Positions 44,530 to 64,000 of a stretch of 64,000 nucleotides of DNA are shown here, piece after piece. Position 1 is the first letter of the stretch; each line of letters begins with the position of its first letter. This DNA comes from Candidatus Latescibacterota bacterium (GTDB taxonomy: Bacteria; Latescibacterota; UBA2968; UBA8231). The position numbers and the translations under genes were made by a program. The notes beneath the pieces were generated by a model. The model did not search any database, was not told the origin of the DNA, and saw nothing but the letters and a program-made list of their open reading frames with translations. The stretch covers positions 864,001 to 928,000 of the forward strand of contig OZ220090.1 in NCBI GenBank assembly GCA_964291625.2, in the 5' to 3' direction.

Positions 44530-44558
44530 AATGTATACATATCTTACTCTGCAATCAA
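44530..44558 (-). promoter_or_regulatory. Putative sigma70 promoter of the DUF5131-TcmP gene
   Basis: TTGATT-N17-TACATT on the minus strand in an AT-rich patch; palindrome ATGTATACAT (44531-44540) overlaps the -10. Confidence 0.4.
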
Positions 44559-44653
44559 CCCGGCTCCTCGACGGAGAATAGGGCAATCGCTCTATCGTCG
44601 CCGATCCCCCGGGTCTGGTGCCTCGCAACCAGTCAAGGGCTATCTTGAGCCCA

Positions 44654-47730: not shown

Positions 47731-47777
47731 TGCCAATCGACCCGGTTGGTACCGCCGGCTCAGAGCCTCCGAGCAAC

Positions 47778-50474: not shown

Positions 50475-51222
50475 GGCCCCTTCCTTCGAGACAGCTGTCG
50501 ATGACGTAGCGGTACTTCGAGTATCCGCGCTGCACCAGACAGAAGCGCTTGATCAGGTCCAGGGCCCAGAACGGCACCAGGGACTCGGTCTTGATCTCCA
50601 GGACGACGGGAGAGTCCGTCCACTGCGCGGTGACCTCGTCGTCGTAGTAGCTCATCTCCCCGTCAGGGCTCCACAGGTCGTATGAACCGCGCATCAGGCG
50701 GTAGCGCATGGCGCGGTCGAAGGTGATGCGGCCGTAAGCGTCGACCTCGCTGACGAAGGGCTCCCGTTCGTAGCGCACGTGCAGGACTGGTTCGGTACCG
50801 TACAGATGGTGCAGGTCGACGAAGGTGCGGGGCATGGCCTCGCGCCGGGGCGGTGTGCGGTCCCGCCGGCGGACTTGAAGCACCTCGGGCCACTCGCTCG
50901 CGGCGATGCGCTCGCGGACCTTCCAGACGGTGCGGCTGTGCCGGTACTTGACCTCGAGGGTGGCGGACTCGACGCGGCCGGTGCCGTAGTAGCGGACCCT
51001 CGGCTTGAAGCGCAACAGCTGGCGTAGTCGGGTGTCGTGGTAGAAGCGCAACCCGGGCGTGTCCATGTAGACGCTGTTGACCGTGTAGCCTGGCTCCTCC
51101 GCGGGGAGGTTGGCGTCGAGGGAGAACAGGGGCTGGATGAACTCGCGGATCTCCGCGGCCAGCTCTTCGGTCACCGTGTACTTCAGCTCGTACCGGTGGA
51201 TGGGGGCGAGGTCAACCGCCAT
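50452..51222 (-). CDS. VTC-domain (polyphosphate polymerase, CYTH-like tunnel) protein
   Basis: RYELKY, NSVYMDTP, KPRVRYY, LEVK, YEREPF, RITFD, VLEIK, YSKY. Confidence 0.88.
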   Translation of the reverse strand: MAVDLAPIHRYELKYTVTEELAAEIREFIQPLFSLDANLPAEEPGYTVNSVYMDTPGLRFYHDTRLRQLLRFKPRVRYYGTGRVESATLEVKYRHSRTVWKVRERIAASEWPEVLQVRRRDRTPPRREAMPRTFVDLHHLYGTEPVLHVRYEREPFVSEVDAYGRITFDRAMRYRLMRGSYDLWSPDGEMSYYDDEVTAQWTDSPVVLEIKTESLVPFWALDLIKRFCLVQRGYSKYRYVIDSCLEGRGRGDDVAA

Positions 51223-52528
51223 GGCCCCTCTCCTGCGGCGGCAGCGGCGGCAGCGACTGCGGACCGTCGATCCCCAGCTTGTAGTACAGGAAGTAGAGGG
51301 CGTGGGACAGATCGCGCTCGCCCTCGGCGATGGCGACCTGGGCATCCAGGATCGTGCGCTCCAGTTCGAGGATCTCGTCCGCCGGCACCGTGGGGTGGTC
51401 GTACGTCCGGACGACCACGAGCGACGCGGCCTGGATGACGGCCTCCCCCTCCCGTCGAGTCAGGTTGCGGGCGAGCAGTGCCTCGGCGTAGTCGGAAAGC
51501 CCTTCGCAGACCTCGTCGGCAATGCGCTGCCGAACCGCTGCGGCCTCCAGCCCGCTCTCGGACACCGCAAGGGAGAGGCCGGCCAGGTTGTCCGCATTGC
51601 GGTTGAACAGAGGGAGCTCCACCCCGAAGGCCAGCTCGTGCCAGTCGTCTTCACCCCCCTCGACATGTCGCGACATCTCCAGGAAGGACAACTGCGGCAG
51701 GAGTCGCCGCCTCTCGAAGTCGTGCCTGTCGAGGGCGAGCTGGTGCCTCTCCTCGGCCAGACGAAGCTCCGGGCGGTTGGCGTAGGCGAGGGTCACGAGC
51801 TCTTCCTCGTTCCCGACGATCCCGGGAAGGGGCTCGGCGGCCAGCTGGATCCGCGCCGAGACGCCCGTCAGACGCCGCAACCTGCGCTCCTCCTCCCGCA
51901 GCGCATGCAGACTTCGAAGGTGGACCTGCCGCGCCTCGGCGACGGCCGTCCTGGCCTTGGTGAGGTACACGATCGACCGCCGGCCATGATCGACCATGGT
52001 CTCGATCTGGGAGATCCGCCGGCTCTCGTTCTCGATCCGCATCGCTGCCAGGCGCGCCAGCTCGGCGTACATGGTGAGGTCGGCGCAGGACCGGCGCACC
52101 CGCGAGGCCAGCCAGTGCCGCTCGCGTATGGCCTCGGCCCTGCGCTCCCACATCGTCACTTGCCTCCGCTGTCTGCGCACCCTCGCTTCGCCGAGTGCCG
52201 GCGGACGCCAGCGGATGCCGATCTCGTACTCGTCGATCCGGGCCCTCCTGCGCCGGGCGGCCAAGTTGCGCACGCGGATCTCGGGATTGTCGATCCAGTC
52301 GAGGGAGCGCATGCGGTGAGTGCGGAGATCGGCCTCTGACTCGAGCAGGCCGATCCTGGGGTTGTTGCGCAGACCGATGGCCACCGTCTCTTCGATGGTC
52401 AGGGGCAGCTCCTGTCCCTCGCCGCCGGCAGCCCCCGCGTCCTGGCCGCCCTCGCTCGGGGCCGCAGTCGAGCAGAGGCCGACGCCGAGGGGGACCAGCA
52501 CGGCTGCGAGAGACCGGCCGCAGCTCAT
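51212..52528 (-). CDS. TolC/CzcC-family outer membrane efflux protein
   Basis: Signal peptide, LTIEETVAIGLRNNP, AYANRPEL, LLPQL, GVELPLFNRN; coiled-coil pattern. Confidence 0.8.
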   Translation of the reverse strand: MSCGRSLAAVLVPLGVGLCSTAAPSEGGQDAGAAGGEGQELPLTIEETVAIGLRNNPRIGLLESEADLRTHRMRSLDWIDNPEIRVRNLAARRRRARIDEYEIGIRWRPPALGEARVRRQRRQVTMWERRAEAIRERHWLASRVRRSCADLTMYAELARLAAMRIENESRRISQIETMVDHGRRSIVYLTKARTAVAEARQVHLRSLHALREEERRLRRLTGVSARIQLAAEPLPGIVGNEEELVTLAYANRPELRLAEERHQLALDRHDFERRRLLPQLSFLEMSRHVEGGEDDWHELAFGVELPLFNRNADNLAGLSLAVSESGLEAAAVRQRIADEVCEGLSDYAEALLARNLTRREGEAVIQAASLVVVRTYDHPTVPADEILELERTILDAQVAIAEGERDLSHALYFLYYKLGIDGPQSLPPLPPQERGHGG

Positions 52529-53613
52529 GGCCCGGCTCTCCCCTCGGCCGCGCCGCGCCCTGCGCCAGTAGCCGCGAAGATCACGGAGGATCGATCGACG
52601 AGGCCCACGCGCACCGACTCGCCAGGCAGCAGAAGGTGACCGGCCTCGAGGACGACGCGCACCTTGCGGGCCCACAGCATCTGCCCGCGAAGCCACAGCC
52701 GCTCCGGCATCGGTGAGTACCCTGGATGGACGAAGTCGATCCGCCCCCTGGCGTCGAAATCGCTCGACCGTCTCGACATCACTTCCACCGCCTGTCCGAC
52801 CCGCCACTGCAGGTCCTCGGTCTCCGGCACGTAGACCTCCACCACGGAGACCTCGGCGCTCTCCACGGTGATGATGGGCAGGAAGGCGTCGACCGTACTG
52901 CCCGGCCGAGCCAGGATCCGGGAGACCAGGCCCGCAGAGGGCGACCTGACCGTTCGATACTCGATGCGCTGGTCTATCCGCGTGATCGACTGGCGGACCT
53001 CGTGGATGCGCTGCATGCGGTCTCCGAGAAGGGAGGTCAGGACGCTGTCGCCGAAGGCCGGATCGTCGCTGCCGAGCTGCACCACCTCGGGCCGGAGGAG
53101 CGCCGACCGTTCGGCGACGGACCGCGCCAGGGCATCGCGGCGAATGGTCATGCGGGTCAGGTCCCGGTCATGGCCCAGGCCGGCCTTCTCCGCGGCCACC
53201 AGGGCGTCGATCTCCCGGCCGAGGGCGTCGAGCTCCGCCTCCTCGGCCTGTACCTCGGCGTATTCCCCGGAGACGCGCAGCCGCAGCAGGTCGTACTCGA
53301 CGTGGTGGCGGCGCCGGTCCGCCGCCGCGATCGACTCCAGGACGGTCAGCTCTTCCGCACGCAGTCGCCTCTCCGCCGACAGGTCCGACACGTCCAGGCG
53401 AGCCAGGACCTGTCCGGCCACGACGGTCTCGCCCACTGCGGCGTGGATCTCGTGGATGGTCCCCCCTTCGCGCGCACCCACCGACTGCTCCGTCGACACG
53501 ACGGTACCCAACAGATACGGATCGACCTGCCACTGCCAGTAGCCGCAGACGGCAGCGATCACGGCCGCGACCCACAGGCCACGGAAGGAGTTCTTCGTCA
53601 GCCAACGCTTCAT
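52525..53613 (-). CDS. HlyD-family periplasmic adaptor
   Basis: N-terminal TM, lipoyl halves GETVVAGQVLARLD and VRSPSAGLV..PG, VYVPE, GRIDFVHP, LLPG. Confidence 0.85.
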   Translation of the reverse strand: MKRWLTKNSFRGLWVAAVIAAVCGYWQWQVDPYLLGTVVSTEQSVGAREGGTIHEIHAAVGETVVAGQVLARLDVSDLSAERRLRAEELTVLESIAAADRRRHHVEYDLLRLRVSGEYAEVQAEEAELDALGREIDALVAAEKAGLGHDRDLTRMTIRRDALARSVAERSALLRPEVVQLGSDDPAFGDSVLTSLLGDRMQRIHEVRQSITRIDQRIEYRTVRSPSAGLVSRILARPGSTVDAFLPIITVESAEVSVVEVYVPETEDLQWRVGQAVEVMSRRSSDFDARGRIDFVHPGYSPMPERLWLRGQMLWARKVRVVLEAGHLLLPGESVRVGLVDRSSVIFAATGAGRGAAEGRAGP

Positions 53614-53616
53614 GGA

Positions 53617-54300
53617 CTACACCTCGACTGCCGAAGTGTGGTTCATGAAGGTCAGCCCGCGAATGCCTTCGATCTCTCCCAGGGCCTCGATCAGTCGCGT
53701 CGCATCCGCCTCCCGGACGAGCTTGACCTGGTAGGTGCAGTCCACCAGGTCGCCCTGGGCCACGTCGCGCATCGTCACCAGGCCGAAGGTCCGCGGTATC
53801 TGCTGCAGTACCTGGGCTACCTGGGCGGCGAAGTCGGGCGCCGCCGGGATCTGGAAGCGCACGAGTCCATCGTATTTCATGCGCGTGCCGAAACGAGAGG
53901 AATGCATGACCACGGCGATGGTACAGAACAGGGCCGTGGCGAAGGCGGCAGCGATGTAGCTCTGCACCCCGCTGGCCACGCCCGCACCGAGAGCGGCGAA
54001 GAGGAAGACCAGGTCCCGGGGATCGCGCAGGTTGGTGCGGAAACGTATGATCGCCAGCGATCCCACGATGCCGATGCCCCGGGCCACGTTGTCGCCGATG
54101 GCGATCATCAGCAGACAGGTGACGAGGCTGCCCAGGACCATGGTCTCCATCAAGCCCCGCGACCAGGAGAGGCCCTGGAACGTCCACTCGTAGACCACGG
54201 CGATCGTGCTCGACAGGCAGAAGGCGACTACCAGGGAGAGCAGCACCGTGTTCCAGTGGAGCTTGATCGTCCCGAAATCGAGCAACAGGCTGTCCATCAT
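53617..54300 (-). CDS. DUF4956-family membrane protein
   Basis: IGDNVARGIGIVGSLAIIRFRTNLRDPRD..FLF...G; C-terminal soluble domain; AAGGAG RBS. Confidence 0.88.
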   Translation of the reverse strand: MMDSLLLDFGTIKLHWNTVLLSLVVAFCLSSTIAVVYEWTFQGLSWSRGLMETMVLGSLVTCLLMIAIGDNVARGIGIVGSLAIIRFRTNLRDPRDLVFLFAALGAGVASGVQSYIAAAFATALFCTIAVVMHSSRFGTRMKYDGLVRFQIPAAPDFAAQVAQVLQQIPRTFGLVTMRDVAQGDLVDCTYQVKLVREADATRLIEALGEIEGIRGLTFMNHTSAVEV

Positions 54301-54333
54301 CCGATCTCCTTCATTTGGACACAGCGCCACACG

Positions 54334-54349
54334 TGCAAGAATTGTGCCG
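54334..54349 (-). promoter_or_regulatory. Sigma54 (-24/-12) promoter of the DUF4956-HlyD-TolC-VTC-CotH operon
   Basis: Minus strand CGGCACAATTCTTGCA: GG-N10-GC, close to the TGGCAC-N5-TTGC consensus, 33 nt before the ATG. Confidence 0.8.
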
Positions 54350-54436
54350 TCCACGAGGCCCCGGCCGCGGTACCGCCCCGGCCTGTCTCTGGCTGCACCC
54401 CGGACCACTGGCAGGAGACAGTCCCATCGGTGGTCC

Positions 54437-54520
54437 GTCCGGTTCTCCGGGACGACTCCGTCTTTCCGCTTTCCTGGACGGGCCTTCGGCCCGGTCGGCG
54501 CTCCGTCCGATTCTCCGGAC
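54437..54520. promoter_or_regulatory. Three GTCCG-N6-CGGAC-like dyads, candidate enhancer (UAS) sites
   Basis: GTCCGgttctcCGGGA (54437-52), TTCCGctttccTGGAC (54464-79), GTCCGattctcCGGAC (54505-20). Confidence 0.55.
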
Positions 54521-54652
54521 CGGGGCAGCAGCCGGCCCGGGGCATGGCAGACCGCCGGCCCCACCGGTGCCGGCGCGGCCGACTTGCAGACGATCAGGGT
54601 GCTGAGGGGGCGAGGGAGACGCAGAGGCCGCGTCTCCCCGGGACGCGGCGGG

Positions 54653-57600
54653 CTACTCGCGGGAGGCCGGGATCACCTGGAGGAGCTGGCGCTGCCGCAG
54701 CTCTCCATCCTCCAGGTACACACAGACGTACAGTCCAGGAGACACCAAGCGGCCGCCGCGGTCGGTTCCATCCCAGGCGAGGGTGCGGCTCTCCGGACCT
54801 GCGGTCAGTCTCTCCACCAGCTCGCCCGCCGTGTTGAAGATCCGTATCTCGACTCTTCCCGAGCCACGGAACCAGAAGGTCGCGGGCTGCCCCCGCGAAA
54901 CCGGATTGGGATAGCTGTAGACGGCGATCTGCTCGTCGATCACCTGCGCCGTCAGGATCACGGTGCGGGTGCCCCCGTCCCCGGTCAGGCTCAGGGTCTC
55001 CTCGATCCTCTCCGACTCCCCCGACAGACCGCCGTCGATCCCCGACCGGAAGAGGATCCACACCTCCGCCGTATCCCCGGGCGCCAGGCTGAAGGACGAC
55101 AGTTCCGCGGCGAACTGCCGGGTGTCGTCGACTGTCCGGGGATCGAGATTGAGCCGTGCATCGCCGCGGTTGTGCACCGGCAGGCTCTTCCACAGGGAGT
55201 CGCCCACGGAGACGGCGCCGAAGTCCAGGGTATCGGCAAGGACTTCCAGCACGGGCGCCACTCCTGTGATCGTGAACGACACCTGGATTGTCGGCTGGTC
55301 GGGATCGCTGCTGTCTATGGTCAGGACACTCGAGTCCGGGCCGAGCCGATCGGGAGAGACACGGATCGTGATCTCGCTGGTCTCCCCGGGTTCCAGGGGC
55401 CAGGGAAAGCGGTCCTCCAGAGCCTCCATGGGCTCACCGTCCCAGAGGAATCCCTCGATGACCAGCTCTGCCTCACCCGTGTTGGCAAGGGTCAGGACCA
55501 CCGGGACGGCCTGATCTGCCCGGACCTCGCCCAGTTCCACCAGGCGCGGCTCGACTTCCAGGCGCGGCTTGATTCCCCGCCCCCTCAGCGGCACGTCGAG
55601 GAAGCTCTTGTCAGGGTCGTTGCTGGTCAGGCCCAACGATGCCTCCACAATACTGGCGTCGCGAGGACTGAAGGTGACCACCACGGTCGTATCCCTCCCC
55701 GGTTCCAGGTCGAAGGACTCGGGCGATACCTGGAATTGCTCATCCGTCGTCGCTGCGCCCACACCCAGCAGACCTGTGCCGCTGTTTTCCACGACCAGGG
55801 TCTCTTCGCCGGACTTGCTCACGGCCACTTCTCCGAAGAAGACCGTATCGGAGACGGATACCTGGATCTGCGGCTTCTGGCTGCCGGCTTTGAGATCGAC
55901 GATGATCACCGGCGCATTCGGATCGTTGGTCGTGAGCACCAGCGCCGCCTCAATCCTCGGGTAGTTGGCCGAAGGATCGAATTTCAGCTCCATGACCAGA
56001 CTGTCACCCGGACTGATGCTGACCCCGGGGCCGGGGCGCTCCACCTCGAACTCCGGTTTGGTGGTGATGAGCTGGTTGATCACCAGATCGGCCTCGCCCC
56101 GGTTGTAGAGCGTCAATTCCCTGTGGACGGGCTCGCCGGAGATGCCGAAGTCGACGCGATCGGAGGACAGACCGATCTCGGGGATCAGCTGGGACATGAC
56201 AATGCTCACGCTGTCGCTCTCGAGCCCCGGGGCGGCGACCTTCACCGTGGCGATTCCGGGCAGGGTGCCCGCGGTAAAGGAGACGCTGGCCATGCCCTCC
56301 ACCACCACGGCGCTGGACACCTCCAGGTCGCCCAGATCCTCGGGACCTTCGACAATCGAGAAGGAGATCTCCGTACTGTTGTCGGTCTTGAGCCGCCCCC
56401 CGAGGGAGTCCTGCACCACGGCGGTCAGGATCGACGTGTCCTCGCCGTTGGCCCGGATGCTCGCAGGTGAGGCGGTGAGGACGATCTTGAACCGGGTCAG
56501 GACGATACCGAAGGCCCCTCCCCCGACGGTGCCGGCGTAGACTTGCCGGGGACGAGAGAGCCCCATGGCCACGGAGAGCACATCGGGGTGGGTCAGACCC
56601 GGCTCGATGGGCTGCCAGCTGTCGCCGCCGTCCAGGCTGCGGAAGACCCCGCCGCGGGTGCCGGCGTACAGGTGTGATGAATCGGCCGGGTCCGCGACCA
56701 GGGCGCGAATCGACGAAGAGGTCAGCCCCGCGTTGATCCCCTCCCAGGTGAGGCCGTCGTCCAGGCTGCGGAAGATCCCGCCGTCGGTTCCGGCAAAGAC
56801 GGCACGGCCCGCCCCATCCAGGGCCAGGGCCCGCACCGCCAGCCCCCCCATGCCGGCGCTCGAGGGCGTCCAGGTCGAGCCCCCGTCCCCGCTGCGGTAG
56901 ACCCCCTCCCCGGTGCCGGCAAAGACAACCTGCCCCCCCGGATGCAGGGCCAGGGCCCGCACCGACAGGGCAGCCAGCCCCTGGCCGTCGGACGGCCAGC
57001 TCAATCCCCCGTCGAGGCTGCGGAAGACCCCCTTCTCCGTGCCCGCAAAGACGGTCGTCCCCGTCGCCCCCGCCGCCAGGGACTGCACGGTCAGGGTATC
57101 CAGCGCCTCGGCCGCTGACGACCAGGTCGAGCCGCCATCGAGGCTGCGGAAGACTCCGCTGCGAGTGCCGGCGAACATCCGCAGAGGCGAACCCGGGTCG
57201 ACCAGGAGCGCATGGACGTCCAGCTCGGCCTGACTGCGCGTCCAGGAAGCGCCCCCGTCGAAGCTGCGGAAGATCCCGGACTCCCCCCCCGCGTGCAGGC
57301 GCAGTGCGTCGGAAGGATCGACGGCCAGGGTGCGCACCGACATGGCTGACAGACCGGTGTTCGCCTCCTCCCACCTCGTCCCCCCGGCGAGGCGGAACAC
57401 CCCGGCCCGGGTACCCGCATACAGCCGCGAGCCGTCGAGGGAATCCAGCCACAGGGCACGCACGGGTACCGTGGGCAGGCCCTCGTCGAGAGCGGTCCAG
57501 GAAGCGCCCCCGTCGAGGCTGCGGAAGACCCCGGACCCGCCCGCCGCGTAGAGCCGCAGGTCGTCGGAGGGGTCGACGGCCAGTGCCTCGACCGCTGACA

Positions 57601-58336
57601 GCCGGGACCCCTCGCCGGCCGGCTCCCAGCTGGCGCCCCGGTCGCCGCTGCGGAAGAGGCCGGCGTCCGTGCCCGCGTACACCCATGCCAGGCCGCCGTC
57701 CACGGCCAGGACCGATACCCCGGCCCCGTCCAGCCCCTCGCCGGCGTCGCTCCACGTCTGCCCCCTGTCCTCGCTCAGGAAGACGCCGGCCTCCGTACCC
57801 GCGTACAGCCGCAGGGTATCGGCGGCCTCCACGGCCAGGGCATGCACGGGACCCGCCAGCCCCTGGCTGGGGTTGTTCCACGTCACCCCCCCGTCCGTCG
57901 TCGACAGAAAGCCGGCGTCCGTACCCGCGTACGCGCGCAGGGGGTCGCGGGGATCGATGGCCAGGGCCGCCACCGACAGAGGCTCCGACTCCTCCCCGGA
58001 GGACCACGTCGCGCCGCCGTCCAGGCTGCGGAACAACCCGGCATCGGTGCCGGCCAACAGGTAGGAGGGGCGGTCCGGGTGCACCGCGAGACTCCGCACG
58101 ACCCGGCCGGCGATGCCGGAGGCGGTCCAGGTCGCGCCCCCGTCGAGGCTGCGGAAGACCCCATCCATGGTGCCGGCATACACGACCTGCCCGTCGCCCG
58201 GCCGCGTGGCCAGGGCCTGGACCGGCCCCCCGTAGAGACCGAGCGGACTCCAGAGATTGTCGGCGCTCCAGGCCCTCGGCGCGGCTCCGAGCAGCATCAC
58301 GCCCGCCAGCAGGCTTCGCCTCCCCCGCGCCGTCAC
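54653..58336 (-). CDS. Large secreted protein: BNR/Asp-box beta-propellers + Big_1-like + four ASH/choice-of-anchor-D-like Ig domains + FlgD-like CTD
   Basis: Signal peptide; 13 GxFRSxDGGxxW-type repeats; LTASPASIRANG; DFG.V...N.G...L...ND units; YPNP...IFNTAGELV...WDG. Confidence 0.85.
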   Translation of the reverse strand: MTARGRRSLLAGVMLLGAAPRAWSADNLWSPLGLYGGPVQALATRPGDGQVVYAGTMDGVFRSLDGGATWTASGIAGRVVRSLAVHPDRPSYLLAGTDAGLFRSLDGGATWSSGEESEPLSVAALAIDPRDPLRAYAGTDAGFLSTTDGGVTWNNPSQGLAGPVHALAVEAADTLRLYAGTEAGVFLSEDRGQTWSDAGEGLDGAGVSVLAVDGGLAWVYAGTDAGLFRSGDRGASWEPAGEGSRLSAVEALAVDPSDDLRLYAAGGSGVFRSLDGGASWTALDEGLPTVPVRALWLDSLDGSRLYAGTRAGVFRLAGGTRWEEANTGLSAMSVRTLAVDPSDALRLHAGGESGIFRSFDGGASWTRSQAELDVHALLVDPGSPLRMFAGTRSGVFRSLDGGSTWSSAAEALDTLTVQSLAAGATGTTVFAGTEKGVFRSLDGGLSWPSDGQGLAALSVRALALHPGGQVVFAGTGEGVYRSGDGGSTWTPSSAGMGGLAVRALALDGAGRAVFAGTDGGIFRSLDDGLTWEGINAGLTSSSIRALVADPADSSHLYAGTRGGVFRSLDGGDSWQPIEPGLTHPDVLSVAMGLSRPRQVYAGTVGGGAFGIVLTRFKIVLTASPASIRANGEDTSILTAVVQDSLGGRLKTDNSTEISFSIVEGPEDLGDLEVSSAVVVEGMASVSFTAGTLPGIATVKVAAPGLESDSVSIVMSQLIPEIGLSSDRVDFGISGEPVHRELTLYNRGEADLVINQLITTKPEFEVERPGPGVSISPGDSLVMELKFDPSANYPRIEAALVLTTNDPNAPVIIVDLKAGSQKPQIQVSVSDTVFFGEVAVSKSGEETLVVENSGTGLLGVGAATTDEQFQVSPESFDLEPGRDTTVVVTFSPRDASIVEASLGLTSNDPDKSFLDVPLRGRGIKPRLEVEPRLVELGEVRADQAVPVVLTLANTGEAELVIEGFLWDGEPMEALEDRFPWPLEPGETSEITIRVSPDRLGPDSSVLTIDSSDPDQPTIQVSFTITGVAPVLEVLADTLDFGAVSVGDSLWKSLPVHNRGDARLNLDPRTVDDTRQFAAELSSFSLAPGDTAEVWILFRSGIDGGLSGESERIEETLSLTGDGGTRTVILTAQVIDEQIAVYSYPNPVSRGQPATFWFRGSGRVEIRIFNTAGELVERLTAGPESRTLAWDGTDRGGRLVSPGLYVCVYLEDGELRQRQLLQVIPASRE

Positions 58337-59934
58337 GGCGGTTCCGTCCGTCCCCTCAGCAGCTCGAAGAGGCGGTTGCTCCCCTGTGCCTTCCGCAGAT
58401 ACTCCAGCTGCGCCAGTCCGGCCAGGTCGACCCGGCGGCCGGCCAGGTCGATGGGACCGCCGCGGCTGAGGCGGGCCGCTTCGCGATAGCAGTTGGCGGC
58501 GCCGGCGAAGTCGCCGGAGAACTCCGACAGCAGGCCGGCCACGTAGTAGGTGTGGGGGTAGCTGGGATCCAGCCGCGCGGCGGTCAACAGCCCCTGCTCC
58601 GAGTAGGGGGGCTCCCGGCTCCGCAACCGGCTGTAGACCCTCGCCACCGCGGCGACGGCCTCGGGGTGGTGCTCCAGGGAAAAGGAGCCGCGCAGCCGCA
58701 CCCGGCCTTCCAGGAGAATCTCGAAGAGATAGGGCCCCTCGAGCAGGTAGCCAGTGCCTTCAAGCCAGTCCGCGGCGGGCTGGAAGGGAAACGCCACCCC
58801 GTGGTCGGAGAGGTGCAGATCATCCGTACCGACCTCTTCGAGGACCACCCCGTCGGGACCGTAGAGGATCAGCTTCGGACGTCGATCGGCCCAGTCCTGC
58901 CCCGAGGCGGGGTAGCGAAGCTCGATCTGCAGCAGGGCTTCATCCACCGGCCACAGACGGGCCTCGGGGGCCGGCTCTCCGTCGCGCTGCAGGCGCCAGC
59001 CGTCGAAGTGGAGGGGAAACTGGTACCGCCCCCAGGAGGCGGCCACCCCCAGGGTCCTGGTGTCGCCCAGGAAGGGCCGATCCTCCACGACGTACTGGGC
59101 GGTGCCGCGGCCCGAGCCGACCGTCAGACCCAGGCGCCAGCCCGTGCCCACGCCCGAGGTCCGCTCGACGGCACCGCTCAGGCCCAGGTCGAGAGGCCCC
59201 GGCGCCAGAAGCGCGTTGGCACCGAGGGTCCAGCGTCCGCTGCGAGGCTGGTAGCCGAATGACAGGAACGGGCGTCCCCGTACCACGGCGGCGCTCAGAA
59301 CCGGGTTCCAGGAGGCTCCTTCCAAGGTCGACCAGGCATTGCGCACCGTCGCTCCGAGGCGCAGCTCGAAGGCCTTGTCGACGGCCAGGGCCGCCAGTCC
59401 TCCGAGGTCCAGCCCGACGTCGCTCCAGCTCTGGCTGCCGGTATCGACCCGGAGCCAGTGGATCCCCAGGCCGAGCTGGGGCGGGCCTGCATCGCTCCAG
59501 GGCCGCAGCCCCTCAAACGCCTTGCCCGCTGCCATCACGACACGGGCTTCGCCATGGGAACCGTACCCCTCGATGTTCCCCTGGGCGTCCGACCGCAGCA
59601 CGCGGCCGGTGCCCAGGCGGTCCAGGCCGACTCCCGCGCCCCACGAGTTGGTGCTGCGCACGAGACTGACCAGGTCGTGGCCGAGGTCCAGCCCATCGAA
59701 CAACTCGGCGTGGGAAAAGGCCGCGTGGTACCGTCGCTCCAGCCGTGCCAGACCCGCCGGGTTCCAGTAGAGCGCCCCCTGGTCCGCGGCCACCGCCACC
59801 GAGGCCGGCCCCAGCACCGCGGCCCGTCCCCAGGCCGCGGGATGGGCGAAGGCCCCCTCGACCTGGCCCTGGACCCGCTCGGCGCCCGCCAGCAGGAGCG
59901 GCCAGGCCCACGCCAGGCTCCTGGCGCACTTCAT
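58333..59934 (-). CDS. PorV/FadL-like outer-membrane beta-barrel with C-terminal TPR-like region
   Basis: Signal peptide, ALYWNPAGLARL, GLDLGGL, GATVRN, alternating beta pattern; C-terminal AARLDP.Y...YY..G...GDFAGA..YREA. Confidence 0.6.
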   Translation of the reverse strand: MKCARSLAWAWPLLLAGAERVQGQVEGAFAHPAAWGRAAVLGPASVAVAADQGALYWNPAGLARLERRYHAAFSHAELFDGLDLGHDLVSLVRSTNSWGAGVGLDRLGTGRVLRSDAQGNIEGYGSHGEARVVMAAGKAFEGLRPWSDAGPPQLGLGIHWLRVDTGSQSWSDVGLDLGGLAALAVDKAFELRLGATVRNAWSTLEGASWNPVLSAAVVRGRPFLSFGYQPRSGRWTLGANALLAPGPLDLGLSGAVERTSGVGTGWRLGLTVGSGRGTAQYVVEDRPFLGDTRTLGVAASWGRYQFPLHFDGWRLQRDGEPAPEARLWPVDEALLQIELRYPASGQDWADRRPKLILYGPDGVVLEEVGTDDLHLSDHGVAFPFQPAADWLEGTGYLLEGPYLFEILLEGRVRLRGSFSLEHHPEAVAAVARVYSRLRSREPPYSEQGLLTAARLDPSYPHTYYVAGLLSEFSGDFAGAANCYREAARLSRGGPIDLAGRRVDLAGLAQLEYLRKAQGSNRLFELLRGRTEPP

Positions 59935-61825
59935 TCGAACAGTCCCACCAGGTCGTCCCTCCCCAGCATTCCCGCCAGGACGGCCGCCCTGCGGGCATTC
60001 TCCGCGGACAGCCCGCCGCGCCGCGCGATGCGCAACATCTCCGCCCACGCCTCGCCGGCCGTCACCGGCACCAGCACTTCGACCTCGGCGCCGGGATCGA
60101 CCTGCAGACGCTCGACGTAGTCGGCCTGGCCGGGACGCTGGACGTGCAGCGTGTAGGCCCCGGGAAGGAGCGGCGAGAAACGGATGGGAAGACGGTCACC
60201 GAGGCGGTTCTCCTCGGTCGCCTCCTGCAGGAAGAGCCGGGCCCGAAAGGCGACCTCGTCCCCCAGGTCGAGGGTATCGACCTGCGCTCTGACGCGCAGT
60301 CCGGCCGGCTCCTGCTCGAGGGAAACCCGCACCGTGGTCTCGTCGACCACCTCGATGCGTTCGGGGGCGACCGGACAGCCGACCCCGTACCGGGCCGCTC
60401 GCAACTCCAGCTGCCTCAGGTTGGCCCGACCACGGATCAGGCGCTCGTCGAAGACCACGAGGCCCTCCGAGTCCGCCCGGCCCAGCAGGAGGTCCGCGGC
60501 CCACAGGTCGATGCCGGGCCAGGGTACCCCTTGCCCGTCGACCACGGTCACGGCTACGGGCTTGGGCTCGAACACGACCCGCAGATCGTAGACGCCGGGC
60601 CCGGGAGACTCGGCGGCAAGCGGCCCCGCTCGAAGACGAGCCCCAACTGGACGAGGCTGATCCGTTCGAGCTCGTCGGGGGCCAGTCGCTTTCTCACCTG
60701 CACACGTCCCCGGCGGTTCGTGGTGCCGGCCGCCGCGGCGTCGAGCAGGACGTCGACGCCGGGGAAGGGCCGCCCGGAGGTGTCCAGCACCTCGATGGTG
60801 AACAGGTTCTCGGCCGGGCGCAGCAGGACCGACTTGCGGATGCGGCCCGGACGGAGCATCTCCACCACGGGCGAGGTCGGACTGGCTTCGTACCCGGGCC
60901 GCACCACGGCGAAGGTGTGGCGGCCAGGCTCCACGGGGAAGACCCCCGGGGTCACTCCGAGAGTGTCGCCGTCGAGCACGACGATCGAGCCAGGGGGATC
61001 GGAGTCCACCTGGAGGAGGGGCGGCACGATCGAGAATCCGCGCACGGCCTCCTCGTTCCAAAGCCGGGGCTCCCCGCCGGCGGCGTCGGTCACCCGGACC
61101 GCGACCTCCCCGAGGCCGACGTGGCCATCGCCGTCTTCGTCGCGGCCCGTCTCCAGCTCCTGGAGCAGGCGAGCAGTGAACCCGCCGTCCACGGCGCGCC
61201 GGCTGCCGACCTCGACCACGCCGGCGCTCTCCGGAAGGAAGTCCCCCCGATGCGCGCCGGGTGTGAATCCGTCGTACTCCCGGTCGTCGGCGGGCGAATC
61301 GGGGCCGGTGAACCCCTTGCCGCCCTCCCCGCTGTACGAGGCGTCGATGACCGCGCAGGTCCGGGTCGTTCTCAGGCGCTGGAGGAACTGGCCGATCTCG
61401 TCGTCGCGCAGGAAGCTCTCCCCCGTCGCCCCCTGGGCGTCAAAGGGCAGGAGGCACTCGTCGTACTGATCGACCTGCTCGTCGAGAAAGAGATCGTCCT
61501 CGAGGCGGGAACCGCGTCCCGAGAAGTAGAACAGGAACAGATCGTCCCCGCCCACCTGGCTGATGAGCGCCTGAAAGGCCCGATGGATGCCCTCGTAGGT
61601 GGCGGCCGAATCGGTGAGGGCCACGATGCGGTCGAACCCGCCTTCCACGGTCAGGAAGCGCTGCAGGGCGCCGACTTCGGAGACCGGGTGCTGCAGGGTC
61701 GGCACCCCCGAACTCTCGGGATAGGCCGCCACGCCCACCAGCAGGGCCCAGCGTTGGGCGCTCCAGGAGGCTTGACACAGACCCAGGAGCAGGACCGCCA
61801 CAGCCAACCCCGTCCGCCGGCCCAT
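59931..61825 (-). CDS. Secreted caspase-like (C14) pseudo-protease + PEGA domains, split by one frameshift near 60625
   Basis: RWALLVGV, YFSGRG, ECLLPFDA, IDASYSG; PEGA VDSDPPGS...GVTP; the frame of 59931-61061 continues the protein and ends in an ATGA overlap. Confidence 0.7.
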
Positions 61826-61829
61826 GGAC

Positions 61830-63860
61830 TCACCGCTGCTTGAGACGGTACTTGCGGATCAGGTCGTAGAGACGGCTGCGCGACAGGCCCAGATCGCCGG
61901 CCACCGCCTCCAGCTGCCAGTCCTTCTCCTCGAGCTTGTCCAGGATCCACTTGCGCTCGAATGCCTCGCGGGCCTTGCGCAAGGTCAGACCCTTGTCGAG
62001 ATCGAGCTCGGCCGCTTCCTCGGGCCCCTCCTGCAGGCGGCCCCAGAGGTGAAGGGCCTGCAGGCGCTCTCCCCCGGCCATGGCCCGGGAGTAGGTCAGC
62101 TGGTTCTCCAGCTCGCGGATATTCCCCGGCCACGGATAGCCTCCGAGCAGTTCCAGGGCCGCCGGGTCGATCCCGGCGGGGTAGTCGGCCAGGAAGTGCT
62201 CCACCAGCAGCGGCACATCCATGAGCCGCTCGCGCAGGGGCGGCAGGGGGATGACCATCACGTAGAGGCGGTAGAACAGGTCGGCTCGGAACCGCCCCTC
62301 GGCGACCTCCTTGTCGAGGTCCCGGTTGGTGGCGCAGACCAGGCGCACGTCCACCGGGCGCGGATGCTCCTCGCCCACCCGCTGTACCTCCCCCTCCTGC
62401 AGGACCCGCAGCAGCTTCACCTGGGTGGAGGGGCTGGTCTCGCTGATCTCGTCCAGAAGCAGAGTGCCGCCGGTCGCTGCCTCGAACAGTCCCTTGCGAT
62501 CCTGTTCCGCCCCGGTGTAGGCCCCCTTCCTGTGACCGAACAGCTCGCTCTCGAGCAGACTCTCGGTCAGGGCGCCGCAGTTGATGCCGATGAACGGCCC
62601 CTCCCGCCGGGCGCTCGTCCGGTGGATCGTGCGCGCCACCTCCTCCTTCCCCGTGCCGGTCTCGCCGTGGACCAGCACGGTTATGTCCGATTCACTCGCC
62701 TTCTGCATGAGGGCGAAGACGCGCCGCATGTTGTGGCTCTGACCGATGATGTGGGGGAACGGCTGCTCCCCCCGGGGCACGGGTTCGACCTGGGGCAGGT
62801 GCACACCTCCGCCCGCCGGGACCGGGGCCTCTTCGCCTCCCGTTCCTCCCCCGTCCCGTGCGCGCCGCAGGGCTTCTTCCAGCAGCCGGTTGCGGATGCG
62901 GCAGAGACCATCGTCCCTCCGGCGAACGGCCCCCAGCAGTTCCATCCGGGTAACCACCGGGGAGGTGCGGTCGTGGCGCGGCGGCTCTCCGCCGTCGAGC
63001 AGGGCCCCGAGCCACCGGGCGCCCTCGGCCGAACGGGTGAGGCCCGCCACGACCCGCTGCAGATTGTCGTCGCCGCCGTTGAGCAGATGCTCCGCCGCCT
63101 CTCCGACCCCCAGGTCGGGATGCTCTTCCAGGAGCGCACACAGGCGCGCCGTGAGATTGGGGTGCCCCTGGGTCCACTCGTAGACCGGGGCGGTCAGGGA
63201 CCCCCCTCTGGCGTCGGCCCGCTCGAGGAGCTGGAGCATCTGCCCGACCCCCTCGATGTCGAAGTCGGTGGTGTAGACCTCCTCGCTGATGTTGAAGGGC
63301 GACAGACCGCTCTCCGGAGCGATGAGGGTTCGCGGGTCCGTGGCCCCGGCCAGGACGAATACATATCGCTCGAACTCGGGCTGGGTAGCGCGTTCGTTGT
63401 AGACCGTGCGGATGGTGCCGAAGAAGCCCTCCCGCCAGGGCTCGGGAATCGCCTCGAACTCGTCGAGAGTCACGACGATGCGCTTCACCCCGGCGCAGCC
63501 CGCTATCGTCTTGAGGTCCTGGTAGAACCCGATCGATTCGGCGCCGGCTTCCACCGTGGTCCGCTCCGCCACGGAGAGGGCCCCGGCAATGCGATCCCCG
63601 ACAAAGCCGTAGAGCTGGGCGCATCCGGCGTCCTTCACCGGGGTCAGGTCGATCGGCACCGAGACGTACACGTCGGCTGACAGGCGGCGGTGCAGGTGAT
63701 ACAGGAGGCTGGTCTTTCCCGTCTGGCGGGCCCCCAGCACCGTCACGTAGTGGCCGCGCCGGACCAGTTCCAGCACTTCGTCGTCCACCGCTCTCTCCAC
63801 GTAGAGGCTCTGGTCGGGATCGGCGATGGGACCGCGCGTCTGGATCTTCCTCGGTGCCAT
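61830..63860 (-). CDS. AAA_35/STAND-like NTPase fused to a sigma54 enhancer-binding AAA+ domain and Fis-type HTH
   Basis: YVER, GARQTGKTS, TLDEFE, SPFNI, WTQGHP; then GETGTGKE, ESELFGH.KGAYTGA, LDEI, RFRADLFYRL, WPGNIREL, LGLSRSRLY. Confidence 0.88.
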   Translation of the reverse strand: MAPRKIQTRGPIADPDQSLYVERAVDDEVLELVRRGHYVTVLGARQTGKTSLLYHLHRRLSADVYVSVPIDLTPVKDAGCAQLYGFVGDRIAGALSVAERTTVEAGAESIGFYQDLKTIAGCAGVKRIVVTLDEFEAIPEPWREGFFGTIRTVYNERATQPEFERYVFVLAGATDPRTLIAPESGLSPFNISEEVYTTDFDIEGVGQMLQLLERADARGGSLTAPVYEWTQGHPNLTARLCALLEEHPDLGVGEAAEHLLNGGDDNLQRVVAGLTRSAEGARWLGALLDGGEPPRHDRTSPVVTRMELLGAVRRRDDGLCRIRNRLLEEALRRARDGGGTGGEEAPVPAGGGVHLPQVEPVPRGEQPFPHIIGQSHNMRRVFALMQKASESDITVLVHGETGTGKEEVARTIHRTSARREGPFIGINCGALTESLLESELFGHRKGAYTGAEQDRKGLFEAATGGTLLLDEISETSPSTQVKLLRVLQEGEVQRVGEEHPRPVDVRLVCATNRDLDKEVAEGRFRADLFYRLYVMVIPLPPLRERLMDVPLLVEHFLADYPAGIDPAALELLGGYPWPGNIRELENQLTYSRAMAGGERLQALHLWGRLQEGPEEAAELDLDKGLTLRKAREAFERKWILDKLEEKDWQLEAVAGDLGLSRSRLYDLIRKYRLKQR

Positions 63861-63885
63861 GGATGCTCTCTTCGGTGGCTGGCGC

Positions 63886-63999
63886 CTACGCGGAGGCCAG
63901 GTTATCTCCGTTCGCCGCGGCCAGGTCCCGGGCAAACCCCGTTCCCGGCTTCACCTGCTCGATGGCCTCGGCGATGTTCTTCACTCTGTGGAGGATGTC
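63886..63999 (-). CDS. 3' end of a gene entering from the right edge, product unknown
   Basis: Open frame DILHRVKNIAEAIEQVKPGTG...LASA* ending TAG 25 nt before the activator start. Confidence 0.45.
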   Translation of the reverse strand, partial: DILHRVKNIAEAIEQVKPGTGFARDLAAANGDNLASA

Positions 64000-64000
64000 C

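Follow-up and report, generated by a model that had tools for sequence, protein, structure and literature searches.

A predicted sigma54-dependent activator with an AAA_35 NTPase module in place of its usual input domain in Latescibacterota

Sigma54-dependent activators are textbook examples of signal-controlled AAA+ ring assembly, and STAND and NLR modules are textbook examples of nucleotide-controlled oligomerisation. Activators of the bEBP type usually take their input through a REC, GAF, PAS, V4R or FHA domain. In bEBPs, NorR and NtrC1 among them, activity depends on ring assembly under control of the N-terminal domain. In a stretch of 64,000 nucleotides (the window), we analysed a gene whose product, P0001, resembles the NtrC-family bEBPs (NtrC, NtrC1/DctD, NorR, PspF) in its AAA+ domain, which has Walker A/B motifs and a GAFTGA-type loop, in its lid and in a predicted HTH. 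It differs from them in its input, a further P-loop NTPase that is unrelated to the first, spans ~333 residues and includes a winged helix, so that two nucleotide-driven assembly modules are predicted to lie in series. Judged from its sequence, P0001 is a sigma54-dependent activator in which a complete AAA_35 module replaces the usual N-terminal input domain. With both in a single polypeptide, the assembly of one may control that of the other.

An open frame without interruption (61830..63935, minus strand) contains the P0001 gene. Translation likely starts at the ATG at 63860, because the upstream gene stops at 63886-63888, a purine-rich stretch precedes this ATG, and the N-termini of homologues read MA.R.IQTRGP; the resulting 676-aa product has the extent given in the first-pass annotation. 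The AAA_35 module (residues 1-333) is followed by a 35-aa linker and then by the sigma54 AAA+ core, lid and predicted HTH (Table 1). Both Pfam and the located motifs bear out that one polypeptide holds two different P-loop NTPases with intact Walker motifs. They are not duplicates of each other, as the AAA_35 profile aligned with the protein's own sigma54 part at a probability of just 0.3% (hhalign). The linker is the least conserved segment, with 46% identity between the genome of the window (G000) and locus L018 compared with 72–80% for the flanking domains, and AlphaFold2 pLDDT falls below 50 from residue 340 onward.

Table 1. Features of the locus in window coordinates. Residues and motif positions are numbered on the 676-aa form of P0001; Pfam residue numbers, in the table and text, are on a 701-aa form (minus 25 gives 676-aa numbering).
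Feature	Position	Strand	Basis or remark
Accessory island, 19,693 bp, in-window part	47568..64000	.	blastn G167 vs G000
Second island operon: DUF4956, HlyD-like, OEP-like, VTC, CotH-LTD genes	47778..54300	-	Pfam
Sigma54-type -24/-12 promoter CGGCACAATTCTTGCA of second island operon	54334..54349	-	RBS + ATG follow at 54300
Putative activator-type sites GTCCGGAGAATCGGAC (54505-54520), GTCCAGGAAAGCGGAA (54464-54479), GTCCCGGAGAACCGGAC (54437-54453)	54437..54520	-	
Gene 5, 1227 aa, BNR/sortilin propeller, Ig-like, C-terminal FlgD_ig	54653..58336	-	Pfam
Gene 4, PorV/PorQ-like outer-membrane protein	58333..60048	-	Weak NCBIfam PorV_fam and PorV2 matches below cut-offs
Gene 3, secreted pseudo-caspase + PEGA	60554..61825	-	Pfam; continues in ORF 59931..61061
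Predicted AAA_35-sigma54 activator gene, P0001, 676 aa + stop	61830..63860	-	ORF, translation, Pfam, NCBIfam
Predicted Fis-type HTH, C-terminal, residues 631-671	61848..61970	-	HTH_8, NCBIfam
AAA+ lid, AAA_lid_14, 568-642 (701-aa numbering)	62010..62234	-	Pfam
GNIRELEN in lid, residues 579-586	62103-62126	-	
Sigma54-interaction AAA+ domain, residues 371-537	62250..62750	-	Sigma54_activat, Pfam
RFRADLFYRL region, residues 523-532	62265-62294	-	
Sensor I VCATN, residues 508-512	62325-62339	-	
Second Walker B TLLLDEI, residues 466-472	62445-62465	-	
GAYTGA, residues 446-451	62508-62525	-	
Second Walker A GETGTGKE, residues 399-406	62643-62666	-	
Linker, Gly/Pro-rich, residues 334-368	62757..62861	-	Lowest conservation, low pLDDT
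AAA_35 module, residues 1-333 (nucleotide-binding, helical with GHP motif, winged helix)	62862..63860	-	Pfam, relatives, AlphaFold2 model
TQGHPNLTARLC motif, helical domain, GxP-type	63138..63173	-	Motif location
Walker B of AAA_35 module, VVTLDEFE, residues 129-136	63453..63476	-	Motif location
Walker A of AAA_35 module, GARQTGKTS, residues 43-51	63708..63734	-	Motif location
Upstream partner gene P0031 (1034 aa), 3' end	63886..64000	-	Remainder beyond window at L009 2886..5990

The C-terminal half matched Sigma54_activat (PF00158) at residues 396-562 of the 701-aa form (E 3.7e-70; 235.4 bits, cut-off 20.2), covering profile positions 1-167 of 168. The motifs that define bEBPs, namely a GAFTGA-type loop, Walker A/B and the sensor and arginine-finger regions, were invariant in all four aligned fusion proteins. 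GAYTGA, also present in one paralogue, is a variant of GAFTGA with Tyr for Phe, a change that reportedly keeps activity in PspF. The AAA+ domain and its motifs uphold the description of this half as a bEBP with GAYTGA loop and arginine-finger region, but the HTH named with them reached only 16.5 bits with HTH_8 (656-696, 701-aa numbering), under the Pfam cut-off of 22. NCBIfam bEBP models (NorR, AtoC, TyrR) align through residues 671-676 of P0001, and PF02954 is on record for two of its homologues, P0003 and P0004. The genome encodes rpoN (DNA-binding domain at 209 bits) and 18 further sigma54-type AAA+ genes.

The N-terminal half matched AAA_35 (PF14516) at residues 40-263 of the 701-aa form (E 5.4e-13; 48.9 bits, cut-off 27) and reached 51.9 bits when searched alone, confirming its proposed AAA_35 identity by HMM. 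The Pfam match ends at profile position 237; relatives whose own matches take in the complete profile line up end to end with P0001 residues 1-333. Across 56 AAA_35 modules, G48, T50 and D133 are invariant and K49 and E134 are kept in 55 and 54, respectively, and the module is apparently catalytically competent. Leipe and colleagues reportedly defined the STAND motifs in 2004 as hhGRExE before the P-loop and GxP in the helical domain. P0001 carries a variant of the former, YVERxxD at residues 20-26 (R23 in 52/56 modules), and GHP at residues 232-234 (G232 in 56/56, P234 in 47/56). ATPase_2 was a secondary Pfam match in 13 of the 56 modules. By hhalign, the AAA_35 profile aligned with proteins whose sole P-loop region is Pfam-labelled nSTAND1 at a probability of 98.9% and with the NACHT region of P0186 at 25%, and gave no match to the NB-ARC part of P0222; the nSTAND3 match to P0001 itself had 21.4 bits, under its Pfam cut-off of 27.2. 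The comparison with P0222 also met a third AAA_35-like module, apart from the NB-ARC domain of that protein.

AlphaFold2 modelled the module at pLDDT 91.6 and pTM 0.90, with strands at 39-42, 65-71, 127-133, 166-172 and 193-196, helices across 202-288, and a C-terminal part of helix (301-309), hairpin (312-322) and helix (325-336). In the model, these form a nucleotide-binding domain, a helical domain and then a winged helix, which is the NOD core of the STAND class. With VIA-align, the best matches were 2qen (Z 21.7, 306 residues aligned) and 2fna (Z 20.7, 302 residues), followed by two plant NLRs (Z 16.8 and 16.6, 291 and 286 residues), MalT (8bob; Z 15.3 over 229) and CED-4 (Z 14.7 over 290); plant NLRs, CED-4, MalT and Avs proteins as a whole matched at Z 12–17 and up to 292 residues, and classical AAA+ proteins aligned across only about 205–220. 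Foldseek agreed with VIA-align (TM 0.66 for 2qen, 0.62 for 2fna). A PDB sequence search with the module profile gave P-loop-level matches only. The domain order and the superposition on NLRs and CED-4 over 286–292 residues thus bear out a STAND-like fold. Arch_ATPase and ORC/Cdc6 proteins rank among the best structural matches as much as STAND proteins do. The module, as modelled, is a STAND/ORC-type unit. The term NLR-like used in the first-pass annotation stands for the fold but not for a tripartite design: P0001 has no repeat sensor domain (LRR, WD40 or TPR, by Pfam) and is therefore not a full NLR-like protein.

In relatives, the slot after the module is taken by TIR, caspase, SpoIIE, cyclase, wHTH, SARP or XRE domains. 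Among 75 representatives, the C-terminal partners were TIR (5), Trans_reg_C (4), EAD7 (4), CHAT (3), cyclase (2), bDLD1 (2) and caspase (1), with no Sigma54_activat; family members also carry Death-like and PNP domains. Eighteen of the representatives have AAA_35 in tandem and 57 have a single stretch, two AAA_35 genes stand side by side in a Polyangiales contig, and WD40, TPR or PD40 repeats were found in 5/75. The view of AAA_35 as mainly a companion of TIR, caspase and WD40 does not hold: the commonest partner among the 120 nearest relatives listed is GAF-SpoIIE, and DNA-binding outputs are frequent there (Trans_reg_C 10, XRE 6, BTAD/SARP 4). Sigma54_activat occurs in three of these 120, all of one clade, and in none of 48 longer relatives; among the relatives examined, the predicted AAA_35-sigma54 output is confined to one Latescibacterota clade.

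Within this clade, the fusion is represented by 19 distinct sequences in three 90% clusters (identity to P0001 of 93–95% for P0002, 69–71% for P0003 and 67% for P0004), and the identical domain fusion is found in independent assemblies, at loci L011, L012 and L018. A scan of genomes recovered two close and two distant loci, and a metagenome scan one locus only. The sequencing runs that match these Latescibacterota are labelled sponge metagenome. Contigs from two other studies (X2 record 11, X4 record 27) bridge the junction between AAA_35 and sigma54 parts, so the fusion is real and conserved and not the assembly chimera that had been considered.

The likely input, missed in the first-pass annotation, is the product of the gene directly upstream, P0031, in which a second, divergent AAA_35-like module sits on a membrane pseudo-caspase protein. 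Its predicted order is signal peptide, pseudo-caspase, PEGA, transmembrane segment, a 250-aa region with no Pfam match, and the P-loop module, which aligned with the AAA_35 profile at a probability of 98.2% (E 5.7e-14, 223 columns; hhalign) and scored E 1e-11 with the A4 HMM. P0031 carries the canonical FFGREEEI upstream of its P-loop, and its counterpart of the helical-domain motif is SSCHPRIIQYLC. The two genes, 26 bp apart, belong to an operon of five genes that is conserved. Of 168 genomes, only the 3 with the fusion yielded high-scoring matches to P0031, as did L018. No other segment of the operon is as conserved as the AAA_35-like module of P0031 (92%, compared with 72% for the module of the activator). 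The caspase dyad is lost (SGRG and DAGYTG, against SGHG and DACHAG in active P0080), with His replaced by Arg in an alignment to metacaspase-4 (6w8r). Gene 3 has likewise lost it (SGRG for SGHG, DASYSG for DACHAG), and the L018 relatives of both pseudo-caspases also have neither His nor Cys (SGRG; DAGYSG, DASYTG). Gene 3 is broken in this assembly by a frameshift near 60600-60650 and is a single frame of 664–668 aa in L011, L012 and L018, where genes 4 and 5 are conserved too. One further frame, P0032 (L009 6061-7869, minus strand), was dropped because it looks like a spurious antisense frame.

The operon lies on an accessory island (as a whole G000 C2:911568-931260, window 47568-67260) that the collinear region of G167 lacks. 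The GC content of the island is 67.9%, compared with 69.6% for the genome. No boundary repeats longer than 9 bp were found at the island, and no integrase or phage genes were seen at its borders, the part inspected. CotH is present in G160 and G166 and absent from G167, G159 and G162. Both island operons have a -24/-12 promoter (GGCAC-N5-TTGC) preceded by paired GTCC-N8-GGAC sites; in front of both P0031 and the DUF4956-CotH operon (CGGCACAATTCTTGCA), promoter and sites are conserved in L011 and L012. Paired sites 40–41 bp apart occur at six promoters in the genome and at none in the reversed genome or in two simulated genomes, and the 16-mer form ending AATCGGAC is found only at the two island promoters. 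The other four cassettes are of a related subtype and sit at other places in the genome, beside VIT-VWA and propeller surface-protein genes; a different activator, a Reg_prop/Y_Y_Y bEBP, is encoded 5 kb from one of them. As this bEBP and P0001 are each present in three of the four cassette-bearing genomes of the genus and their distributions fit about equally, either is a candidate binder of the sites; the genomes in this comparison are closely related to one another and not independent. Upstream of the operon in L018, a 71% relative, there is no recognisable promoter or GTCC-N8-GGAC site, so the evidence for autoregulation comes from within one genus. A search of window 54000-64000 for sigma70-like promoters, with a consensus that may not apply to the phylum, found none. 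RNA-library contigs, in which DNA carry-over is possible and which show no transcript start, cover the genes and leave L009 2610-2991 and 5857-6047 uncovered.

We propose, at roughly an even chance of being right, that the AAA_35 module, by assembling, gates the ring of the activator, with P0031 as input and the two island operons as targets of activation. Nucleotide-dependent assembly of the module would decide whether the tethered AAA+ domains form an active ring. The signal would arrive from P0031 by contact between the two AAA_35-type modules, and P0031 and P0001 together would amount to a tandem AAA_35 protein, a common type in the family, divided between two polypeptides. The activator would then switch on both island operons, its own included, whose products would be surface or secreted proteins. 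Because the linker is flexible and variable, we lean towards positive control, with assembly promoting ring formation. A more tentative elaboration is a relay of two NOD units: an envelope cue on the dead-caspase ectodomain would lead to nucleotide-dependent assembly of the P0031 module, which would template assembly of the activator and thereby the sigma54 ring.

The same partner could act in the opposite sense, and we consider it unlikely that P0031 holds the activator inactive at the membrane until an envelope signal or nucleotide turnover frees it. Such logic is known for MalK-MalT and PspA-PspF. The co-occurrence, the AAA_35-like module and the conservation of P0031 serve this explanation as they do gating by assembly. 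It is established for bEBPs that an activator tethered to the membrane cannot act on DNA; a membrane-tethered partner would keep P0001 off DNA and therefore fits sequestration as well as activation. MalT is also among the structural matches, its entry (8bob, Z 15.3) being entitled 'negative regulation of the maltose system'. The flexible linker, from which we lean to positive control, is equally compatible with both.

Somewhat more doubtful is that the AAA_35 module alone answers the nucleotide state or a cytosolic ligand or protein, P0031 being co-expressed cargo or an unrelated paralogue. The 57 representatives with one AAA_35 stretch, many of which are module plus output only, are consistent with this, as is the weak BLASTP match between the two modules (E 0.011, at the P-loop only), but P0031 and P0001 strictly co-occur and are closely spaced, the module of P0031 is exceptionally conserved, and P0001 has no sensor domain of its own. 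A role in conflict, in which the AAA_35 module as a bacterial NLR would sense an invader protein and trigger transcription of the island, appears very unlikely. The TIR, caspase, CHAT, EAD7, Death-like and PNP domains of the family are typical of conflict systems, the locus sits on an accessory island, and RtcR-type models belong to PADLOC. However, the PADLOC 2.0 matches of the N-terminal module and the partner NTPase are weak and at P-loop level (PDC-S01 about 19–21 bits, PDC-S27 20 bits), P0001 has no repeat sensor, both caspase-like domains have no His-Cys dyad, the promoters are followed by genes for an efflux-type system and for surface or secreted proteins, not for known effectors, and the inspected island borders showed no integrase or phage genes. 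An artefact, be it a fusion created by misassembly or a pseudogene in decay, is next to impossible: indel errors or decay do occur at the locus, as the frameshift in gene 3 next door shows, but the frame is uninterrupted, its catalytic motifs are all conserved, and its 19 distinct sequences come from many contigs, with the junction present in three other assemblies and bridged in other studies.

If contact between the partners is true, gating by assembly would provide a transmembrane route with no histidine kinase, in which paired NOD-type modules link a pseudo-protease ectodomain to sigma54 polymerase; if the relay is true, a self-contained surface-protein island in Latescibacterota would be under kinase-free, NLR-style control. 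The outputs of the family, which include phosphatase, cyclase and DNA-binding domains and now a predicted bEBP, point to AAA_35 as a general signal-transduction module besides a part of conflict systems. The system is limited in reach, as it is confined to a single small clade of bacteria that are uncultured. It is compact, comprising an activator, a partner and two promoters whose repeats are defined, and testable in E. coli.

Among known systems, the proposed relay between P0031 and the activator recalls NAIP-NLRC4, where a sensor NOD protein nucleates assembly of a second, output-bearing NOD protein, by analogy only, as homology goes no further than the fold class. Over its whole length, the module is structurally closest to the archaeal Arch_ATPases PABY2304 (2qen) and SSO1545 (2fna), but these proteins stand alone and share 14% sequence identity with it, and their entry titles give no function. 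RtcR (CARF-AAA+-HTH) is likewise a sigma54 activator with an input domain from the conflict-system repertoire; the PADLOC RtcR_PspF2 CARF_AAA_HTH model matches P0001 at residues 364-673 (E 3e-105) and NCBIfam RtcR at E 2e-83, but this likeness is confined to the AAA+-HTH part, the N-terminus being an NTPase in P0001 and a ligand-binding CARF Rossmann domain in RtcR. Uncharacterised AAA_35-wHTH, -SARP, -XRE and -TIR proteins (for example P0005, 48–50% identical) share the 333-residue module with an output in the same position and differ in the output domain. In the literature searched, at the level of main texts, we found no description of an AAA_35-sigma54 activator fusion, in keeping with the first-pass annotation, which had not recognised the architecture as a described one; the main texts of PMC8195603 and PMC13581612 contain none, that of PMC7159879, a STAND NTPase paper, makes a passing remark on NtrC-like ATPases only, and supplementary architecture tables may bear on the matter. 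MalT, AfsR and GutR, cited as STAND regulators in PMC13581612, also join a nucleotide-binding oligomerisation module to a transcription output. They use LuxR or SARP outputs, sigma70 polymerase and repeat sensors of their own, whereas the predicted output of P0001 is a sigma54 remodelling ring driven by ATP, and the protein itself has no sensor domain. With these characterised regulators and the DNA-binding outputs of AAA_35 relatives, direct wiring to transcription, put forward earlier, is therefore not new in principle: STAND-type control of transcription was already known, and what is new here is a sigma54 AAA+ output on an AAA_35 module.

P0001, the AAA_35-sigma54 activator, lies in a single open frame and most probably starts at the ATG at 63860, judging from the end of the upstream gene (63886-63888), a purine-rich stretch 5' of the ATG and the N-termini of homologues, which all share MA.R.IQTRGP in the alignment. 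Translation gives a product of 676 aa; Pfam positions were counted on a 701-aa form. The first-pass annotation had described two different P-loop NTPases with intact Walker motifs, a GAYTGA loop, an arginine-finger region and an HTH. Besides the Pfam domains, we located two Walker sets, GAYTGA, sensor I, the arginine-rich stretch RFRADLFYRL and GNIRELEN, all unchanged across the four aligned fusion proteins (4/4). When AAA_35 was compared with the sigma54 part of P0001 itself, the hhalign probability was 0.3%, and outside the P-loop the two NTPase parts are unrelated. The earlier description was borne out; for the HTH, the HTH_8 match is sub-threshold. NCBIfam models for NifA, NorR, AtoC, RtcR and NtrC covered the stretch from residue ∼365 to the C-terminus, with scores all far under their equivalog cut-offs, so P0001 is a bEBP of no named subtype.

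Coordinates of the features in the window, in L009 (the locus sequence extending past the window end) and elsewhere in the genome (G000)
Feature	Location	Strand	Details
Open frame holding P0001	window 61830-63935	-	single ORF
AAA_35 in P0001	residues 40-263 (701-aa numbering)		Pfam, 48.9 bits against a cut-off of 27
Sigma54_activat in P0001	residues 396-562 (701-aa numbering)		Pfam, E 3.7e-70
AAA_lid_14 in P0001	residues 568-642 (701-aa numbering)		Pfam
HTH_8 in P0001	residues 656-696 (701-aa numbering)		Pfam, sub-threshold
Gene 1 (P0031)	L009 2886..5990	-	1034 aa, ends 26 bp upstream of P0001 start
Gene 3	window 59931-61825	-	pseudo-caspase-PEGA
Gene 4			PorV-like, weak match
Gene 5			1227-aa BNR/Ig protein, C-terminal FlgD_ig domain
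-24/-12 site GGGCACGCTTGTTGCT			just upstream of gene 1
-24/-12 site CGGCACAATTCTTGCA	window 54334-54349	-	precedes next operon
DUF4956, VTC, CotH-LTD set	window 47778-54300	-	joined with HlyD-like and OEP-like genes, sigma54-type promoter in front
Distant cassettes (L019-L022)	C1:1665210, 1932509, 3930717	-	near-identical to each other and to the next
Distant cassette (L019-L022)	C1:3232205	+	near-identical to the preceding three
Extra repeat copy	C1:3649738		no promoter within the limits used
Reg_prop/Y_Y_Y activator	L019 5401..8451 = C1:3237300-3240350	-	1016 aa, propeller input
Small G000-specific insertion	window 42611-44664		against G167; DUF5131 gene 42819..44492
Hydantoinase/oxoprolinase	L009 7932-10013	+	query frame without in-frame TGA

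Residues 1-345, searched against 1.84 billion cluster representatives, gave 6569 matches at E <=1e-3 and 4420 at E <=1e-10. As most of these covered residues 1-333 end to end, the N-terminal unit is a 333-residue module. AAA_35 was matched by 75/75 scanned representatives and 56/56 aligned modules, the latter with secondary Pfam matches to AAA_22 (41), AAA_14 (37), AAA_16 (33), ATPase_2 (13) and nSTAND3 (7). AlphaFold2, run on the alignment of these 56 modules, gave a confident model (mean pLDDT 91.6, pTM 0.90) with a five-stranded P-loop domain, then a helical domain, where the invariant glycine of TxGHP sits, then a winged helix (helix 301-309, hairpin 312-322, helix 325-336). By VIA-align against 48,161 PDB representatives, the model matched archaeal Arch_ATPases (2qen, Z 21.7, 306 residues aligned; 2fna, Z 20.7, 302), plant NLRs (9h2l, Z 16.8, 291; 9qlv, Z 16.6, 286), ORC2 (1w5s, Z 16.0, 288), MalT (8bob, Z 15.3, 229), CED-4 (2a5y, Z 14.7, 290), Avs5 (9jap, Z 14.2, 266), ZAR1 (6j5t, Z 12.9, 292) and Avs3 (8dgc, Z 12.0, 279), whereas classical AAA+ proteins aligned over ∼205-220 residues and left out the winged helix. 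Foldseek agreed with VIA-align. In profile comparisons, the module matched proteins with a single P-loop region labelled nSTAND1 in Pfam (hhalign 98.9%, E ∼1e-17, 255-309 columns) and, weakly, a NACHT region (probability 25%); local hhalign found no link to an NB-ARC region. We conclude from the predicted fold that the module is a NOD core of the STAND/ORC type, with Arch_ATPase as its nearest match. As a label, 'STAND-like', the term first used, is fair, given the fold match to NLR, CED-4 and MalT cores and the 98.9% match to nSTAND1-labelled proteins; 'NLR-like' was overstated, because P0001 has no repeat sensor.

An assembly chimera had been named at the outset among the things that could undo the finding. 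The same fusion is carried by P0002 (93-95% identical to P0001), P0003 from Candidatus Latescibacteria (69-71%; named only 'AAA family ATPase' in its public record) and P0004 (67%), within the same genus by two genomes that serve as species representatives (loci L011 and L012, 90-92%) and by a metagenome-collection contig, L018 (71%). Exact look-up gave 17 + 1 + 1 distinct fusion sequences in three 90% clusters, one of the listed sequences being publicly named 'sigma 54-interacting transcriptional regulator'. Contigs from sequencing runs of other studies also span the junction of the two halves (module end, L009 1862; sigma54 domain start, L009 1750): X2 record 11 covers L009 1658-1965 with 4 differences, and X4 record 27 covers L009 1588-1932 with 6. 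Together, these homologues, clusters and bridging contigs exclude a chimera; the fusion is genuine and recurs in separate assemblies. X2 is a metatranscriptomic library with contigs on 27/30 bins, which is compatible with expression of the fusion gene but no proof of it. Most runs holding the stretch L009 700-6400 are labelled sponge metagenome, and long pieces of X2 and X4 match it with few differences, which suggests that the source organism is sponge-associated.

Sigma54_activat occurred in none of the 75 scanned module representatives (0/75). Outputs after the module were TIR (5), Trans_reg_C (4), EAD7 (4), cyclase (2) and Death-like (2); CHAT lay N-terminal to it in 3/75, WD40/TPR/PD40 repeats were present in 5/75, and caspase, receiver, PNP and CHASE2 were found once each. 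Among 176 collected relatives, the C-terminal half of P0001 matched only P0002-P0004 (phmmer). A profile search of a 5.8-billion-protein collection, its reach limited by word sharing and by a ceiling of 8000 candidates, found PF00158 in the same three proteins only among 120 of 132 near-length matches, and in none of the longer relatives (absent from 48/48). By hand tally of the precomputed Pfam column, these 120 listed relatives carried SpoIIE (37), Trans_reg_C (10), XRE-type HTH (6) and BTAD/SARP (4). AAA_35 matches were present in 33/168 genomes of the phylum, with ∼700-aa frames only in G000 and the same-genus genomes G160 and G166; the close module was confined to 3/168 genomes, all of this genus (3/10 of its genomes), and the sigma54 domain was absent from the 4 other AAA_35 matches scanned in the phylum. 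The output survey and genome counts show that the sigma54 output is a rare, lineage-specific addition to a module often wired to transcription otherwise. Separately, P0222, on record with NB-ARC, TPR and TIR, has a C-terminal AAA_35-like module (residues 954-1208, hhalign 98.3%), and therefore two P-loop regions of unlike kinds in one chain.

The P0001 gene comes second in a compact run of five minus-strand genes, whose synteny is kept in L011, L012 and L018. The product of gene 1, P0031, reads in order as a signal peptide, a caspase-like domain, PEGA, a single transmembrane segment, 250 cytoplasmic residues that match no family and a P-loop module. This module, with weak matches to AAA_22, nSTAND6, ATPase_2 and nSTAND1, is a divergent AAA_35: hhalign matched it to the AAA_35 profile (probability 98.2%, E 5.7e-14, 223 columns), the aligned columns including a TGP motif ahead of the P-loop, the two Walker motifs, SPF-N and an HP..Q.LC motif, and an HMM of the 56 modules found it at E 1e-11. 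In the comparison of G000 with L018, no part of the operon is better conserved than this P0031 module (92% identity), P0001 showing 72% in its AAA_35 module, 46% in the linker, 80% in the sigma54 core and 67% in the HTH region. High-scoring matches to the cytoplasmic part of P0031 were found only in the three fusion-bearing genomes. Gene 3 encodes a secreted paralogue of the P0031 ectodomain (36-38% identical over ∼300 residues), and in G000 and L018 alike the catalytic dyad is gone from both caspase-like domains (SGRG for SGHG; DAGY(T/S)G or DASY(S/T)G for DACHAG). In G000, a frameshift near 60600-60650 splits gene 3, perhaps through an indel in the assembly, perhaps as a genuine break; L011, L012 and L018 have the gene as a single frame of 664-668 aa.

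Counts of -24/-12 sites by themselves were not above chance. However, a pair of GTCCrGrAAAnCGGAC-type repeats, spaced 40-41 bp, lies ahead of each of the two local promoters, and genome-wide such cassettes numbered 6 in G000 versus 0 in the reversed genome and 0 in two genomes simulated with a first-order model. With ∼0.2 expected, the exact 16-mer pattern was counted 3 times, and the form ending AATCGGAC is confined to the two local sites. If the GGGCACGCTTGTTGCT promoter is used, the Met of MSQGPALRRPW is the probable translation start of P0031; the operon behind CGGCACAATTCTTGCA encodes DUF4956, HlyD-like, OEP-like, VTC and CotH-LTD proteins. G167, whose genome belongs to the same genus and is a single contig, is collinear with G000 as far as window 47567 and resumes at window-equivalent 67261, so G000 carries an island of 19,693 bp; it holds exactly these two operons and their two cassettes, both kept in L011 and L012. 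CotH was found only in G160 and G166 among five genomes checked. Orthologues of the hydantoinase/oxoprolinase in G160, G166 and G167 each have one in-frame TGA.

As the island holds exactly both operons and both cassettes, P0001 would be its natural regulator. A rival candidate for the cassettes is a Reg_prop/Y_Y_Y sigma54 activator encoded 5 kb from one of the other four. These four share an extended sequence, in which GTCCGGGAAACCGGAC and GTCCAGGAAACTGGAA sites form a pair followed by a GGCAC-N5-TTGC promoter, and precede large surface-protein genes, all with a FlgD_ig domain: three VIT-type (two with VWA) and one LDL-receptor-type propeller; promoter to first solid gene is ∼340 nt in two of them. 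Within the genus, the genomes with cassettes are G000, G160, G166 and G165, those with the fusion G000, G160 and G166, and those with the Reg_prop/Y_Y_Y activator G000, G160, G165 and G167; L018 has no recognisable cassette. The activator-near-cassette arrangement is repeated on G160 contig C72.

The domain architecture, its fold and conservation, the homologous module in P0031, a sigma54 system in the genome and the island are established; the mechanism that follows is inferred. By analogy with relatives of its fold, the AAA_35 module may be a nucleotide-driven assembly switch. Since a bEBP works only in ring form, the N-terminal modules, by assembling or coming apart, could control whether the tethered AAA+ cores form their ring, and as the linker is variable and flexible, we favour assembly-promoted activation over a rigid inhibitory contact. 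P0001 has no sensor domain and P0031 offers an ectodomain and a homologous module; moreover, tandem or adjacent AAA_35 modules are common (at least two stretches in 18/75 representatives, two genes side by side in locus L014). We therefore propose that the modules of P0031 and P0001 could co-assemble, with P0031 supplying the signal. Equally coherent is membrane sequestration, in which the partner would hold P0001 and release it on signal. That the AAA_35 switch acts autonomously, or that the AAA_35-sigma54 protein serves in defence, is less likely. The fusion puts two ATP-driven assembly machines in series, and co-assembly with P0031 might form a kinase-free transmembrane relay; the interest is tempered by the narrow distribution, by STAND-type transcription factors already being known and by the contact between modules being a proposal only.

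Our literature search found no paper on PF14516 or describing a STAND NTPase-sigma54 fusion, nor was such a fusion found in the main texts of PMC8195603 and PMC13581612. Within this main-text scope, the initial impression that the architecture was not a described one holds: it is both real and rare, and apparently undescribed. NtrC-like ATPases come up a single time, as a broad parallel, in Kaur et al. 2020 (PMC7159879); the 2021 paper by Kaur et al. (PMC8195603) notes ECF-type HTH outputs in its main text, and that of the 2026 STAND survey (PMC13581612) cites MalT, GutR and AfsR as non-immune STANDs. Among known systems, P0001 fits best under two kinds at once, as a bEBP whose class of input domain is new and as an AAA_35/STAND-type module whose output is new.
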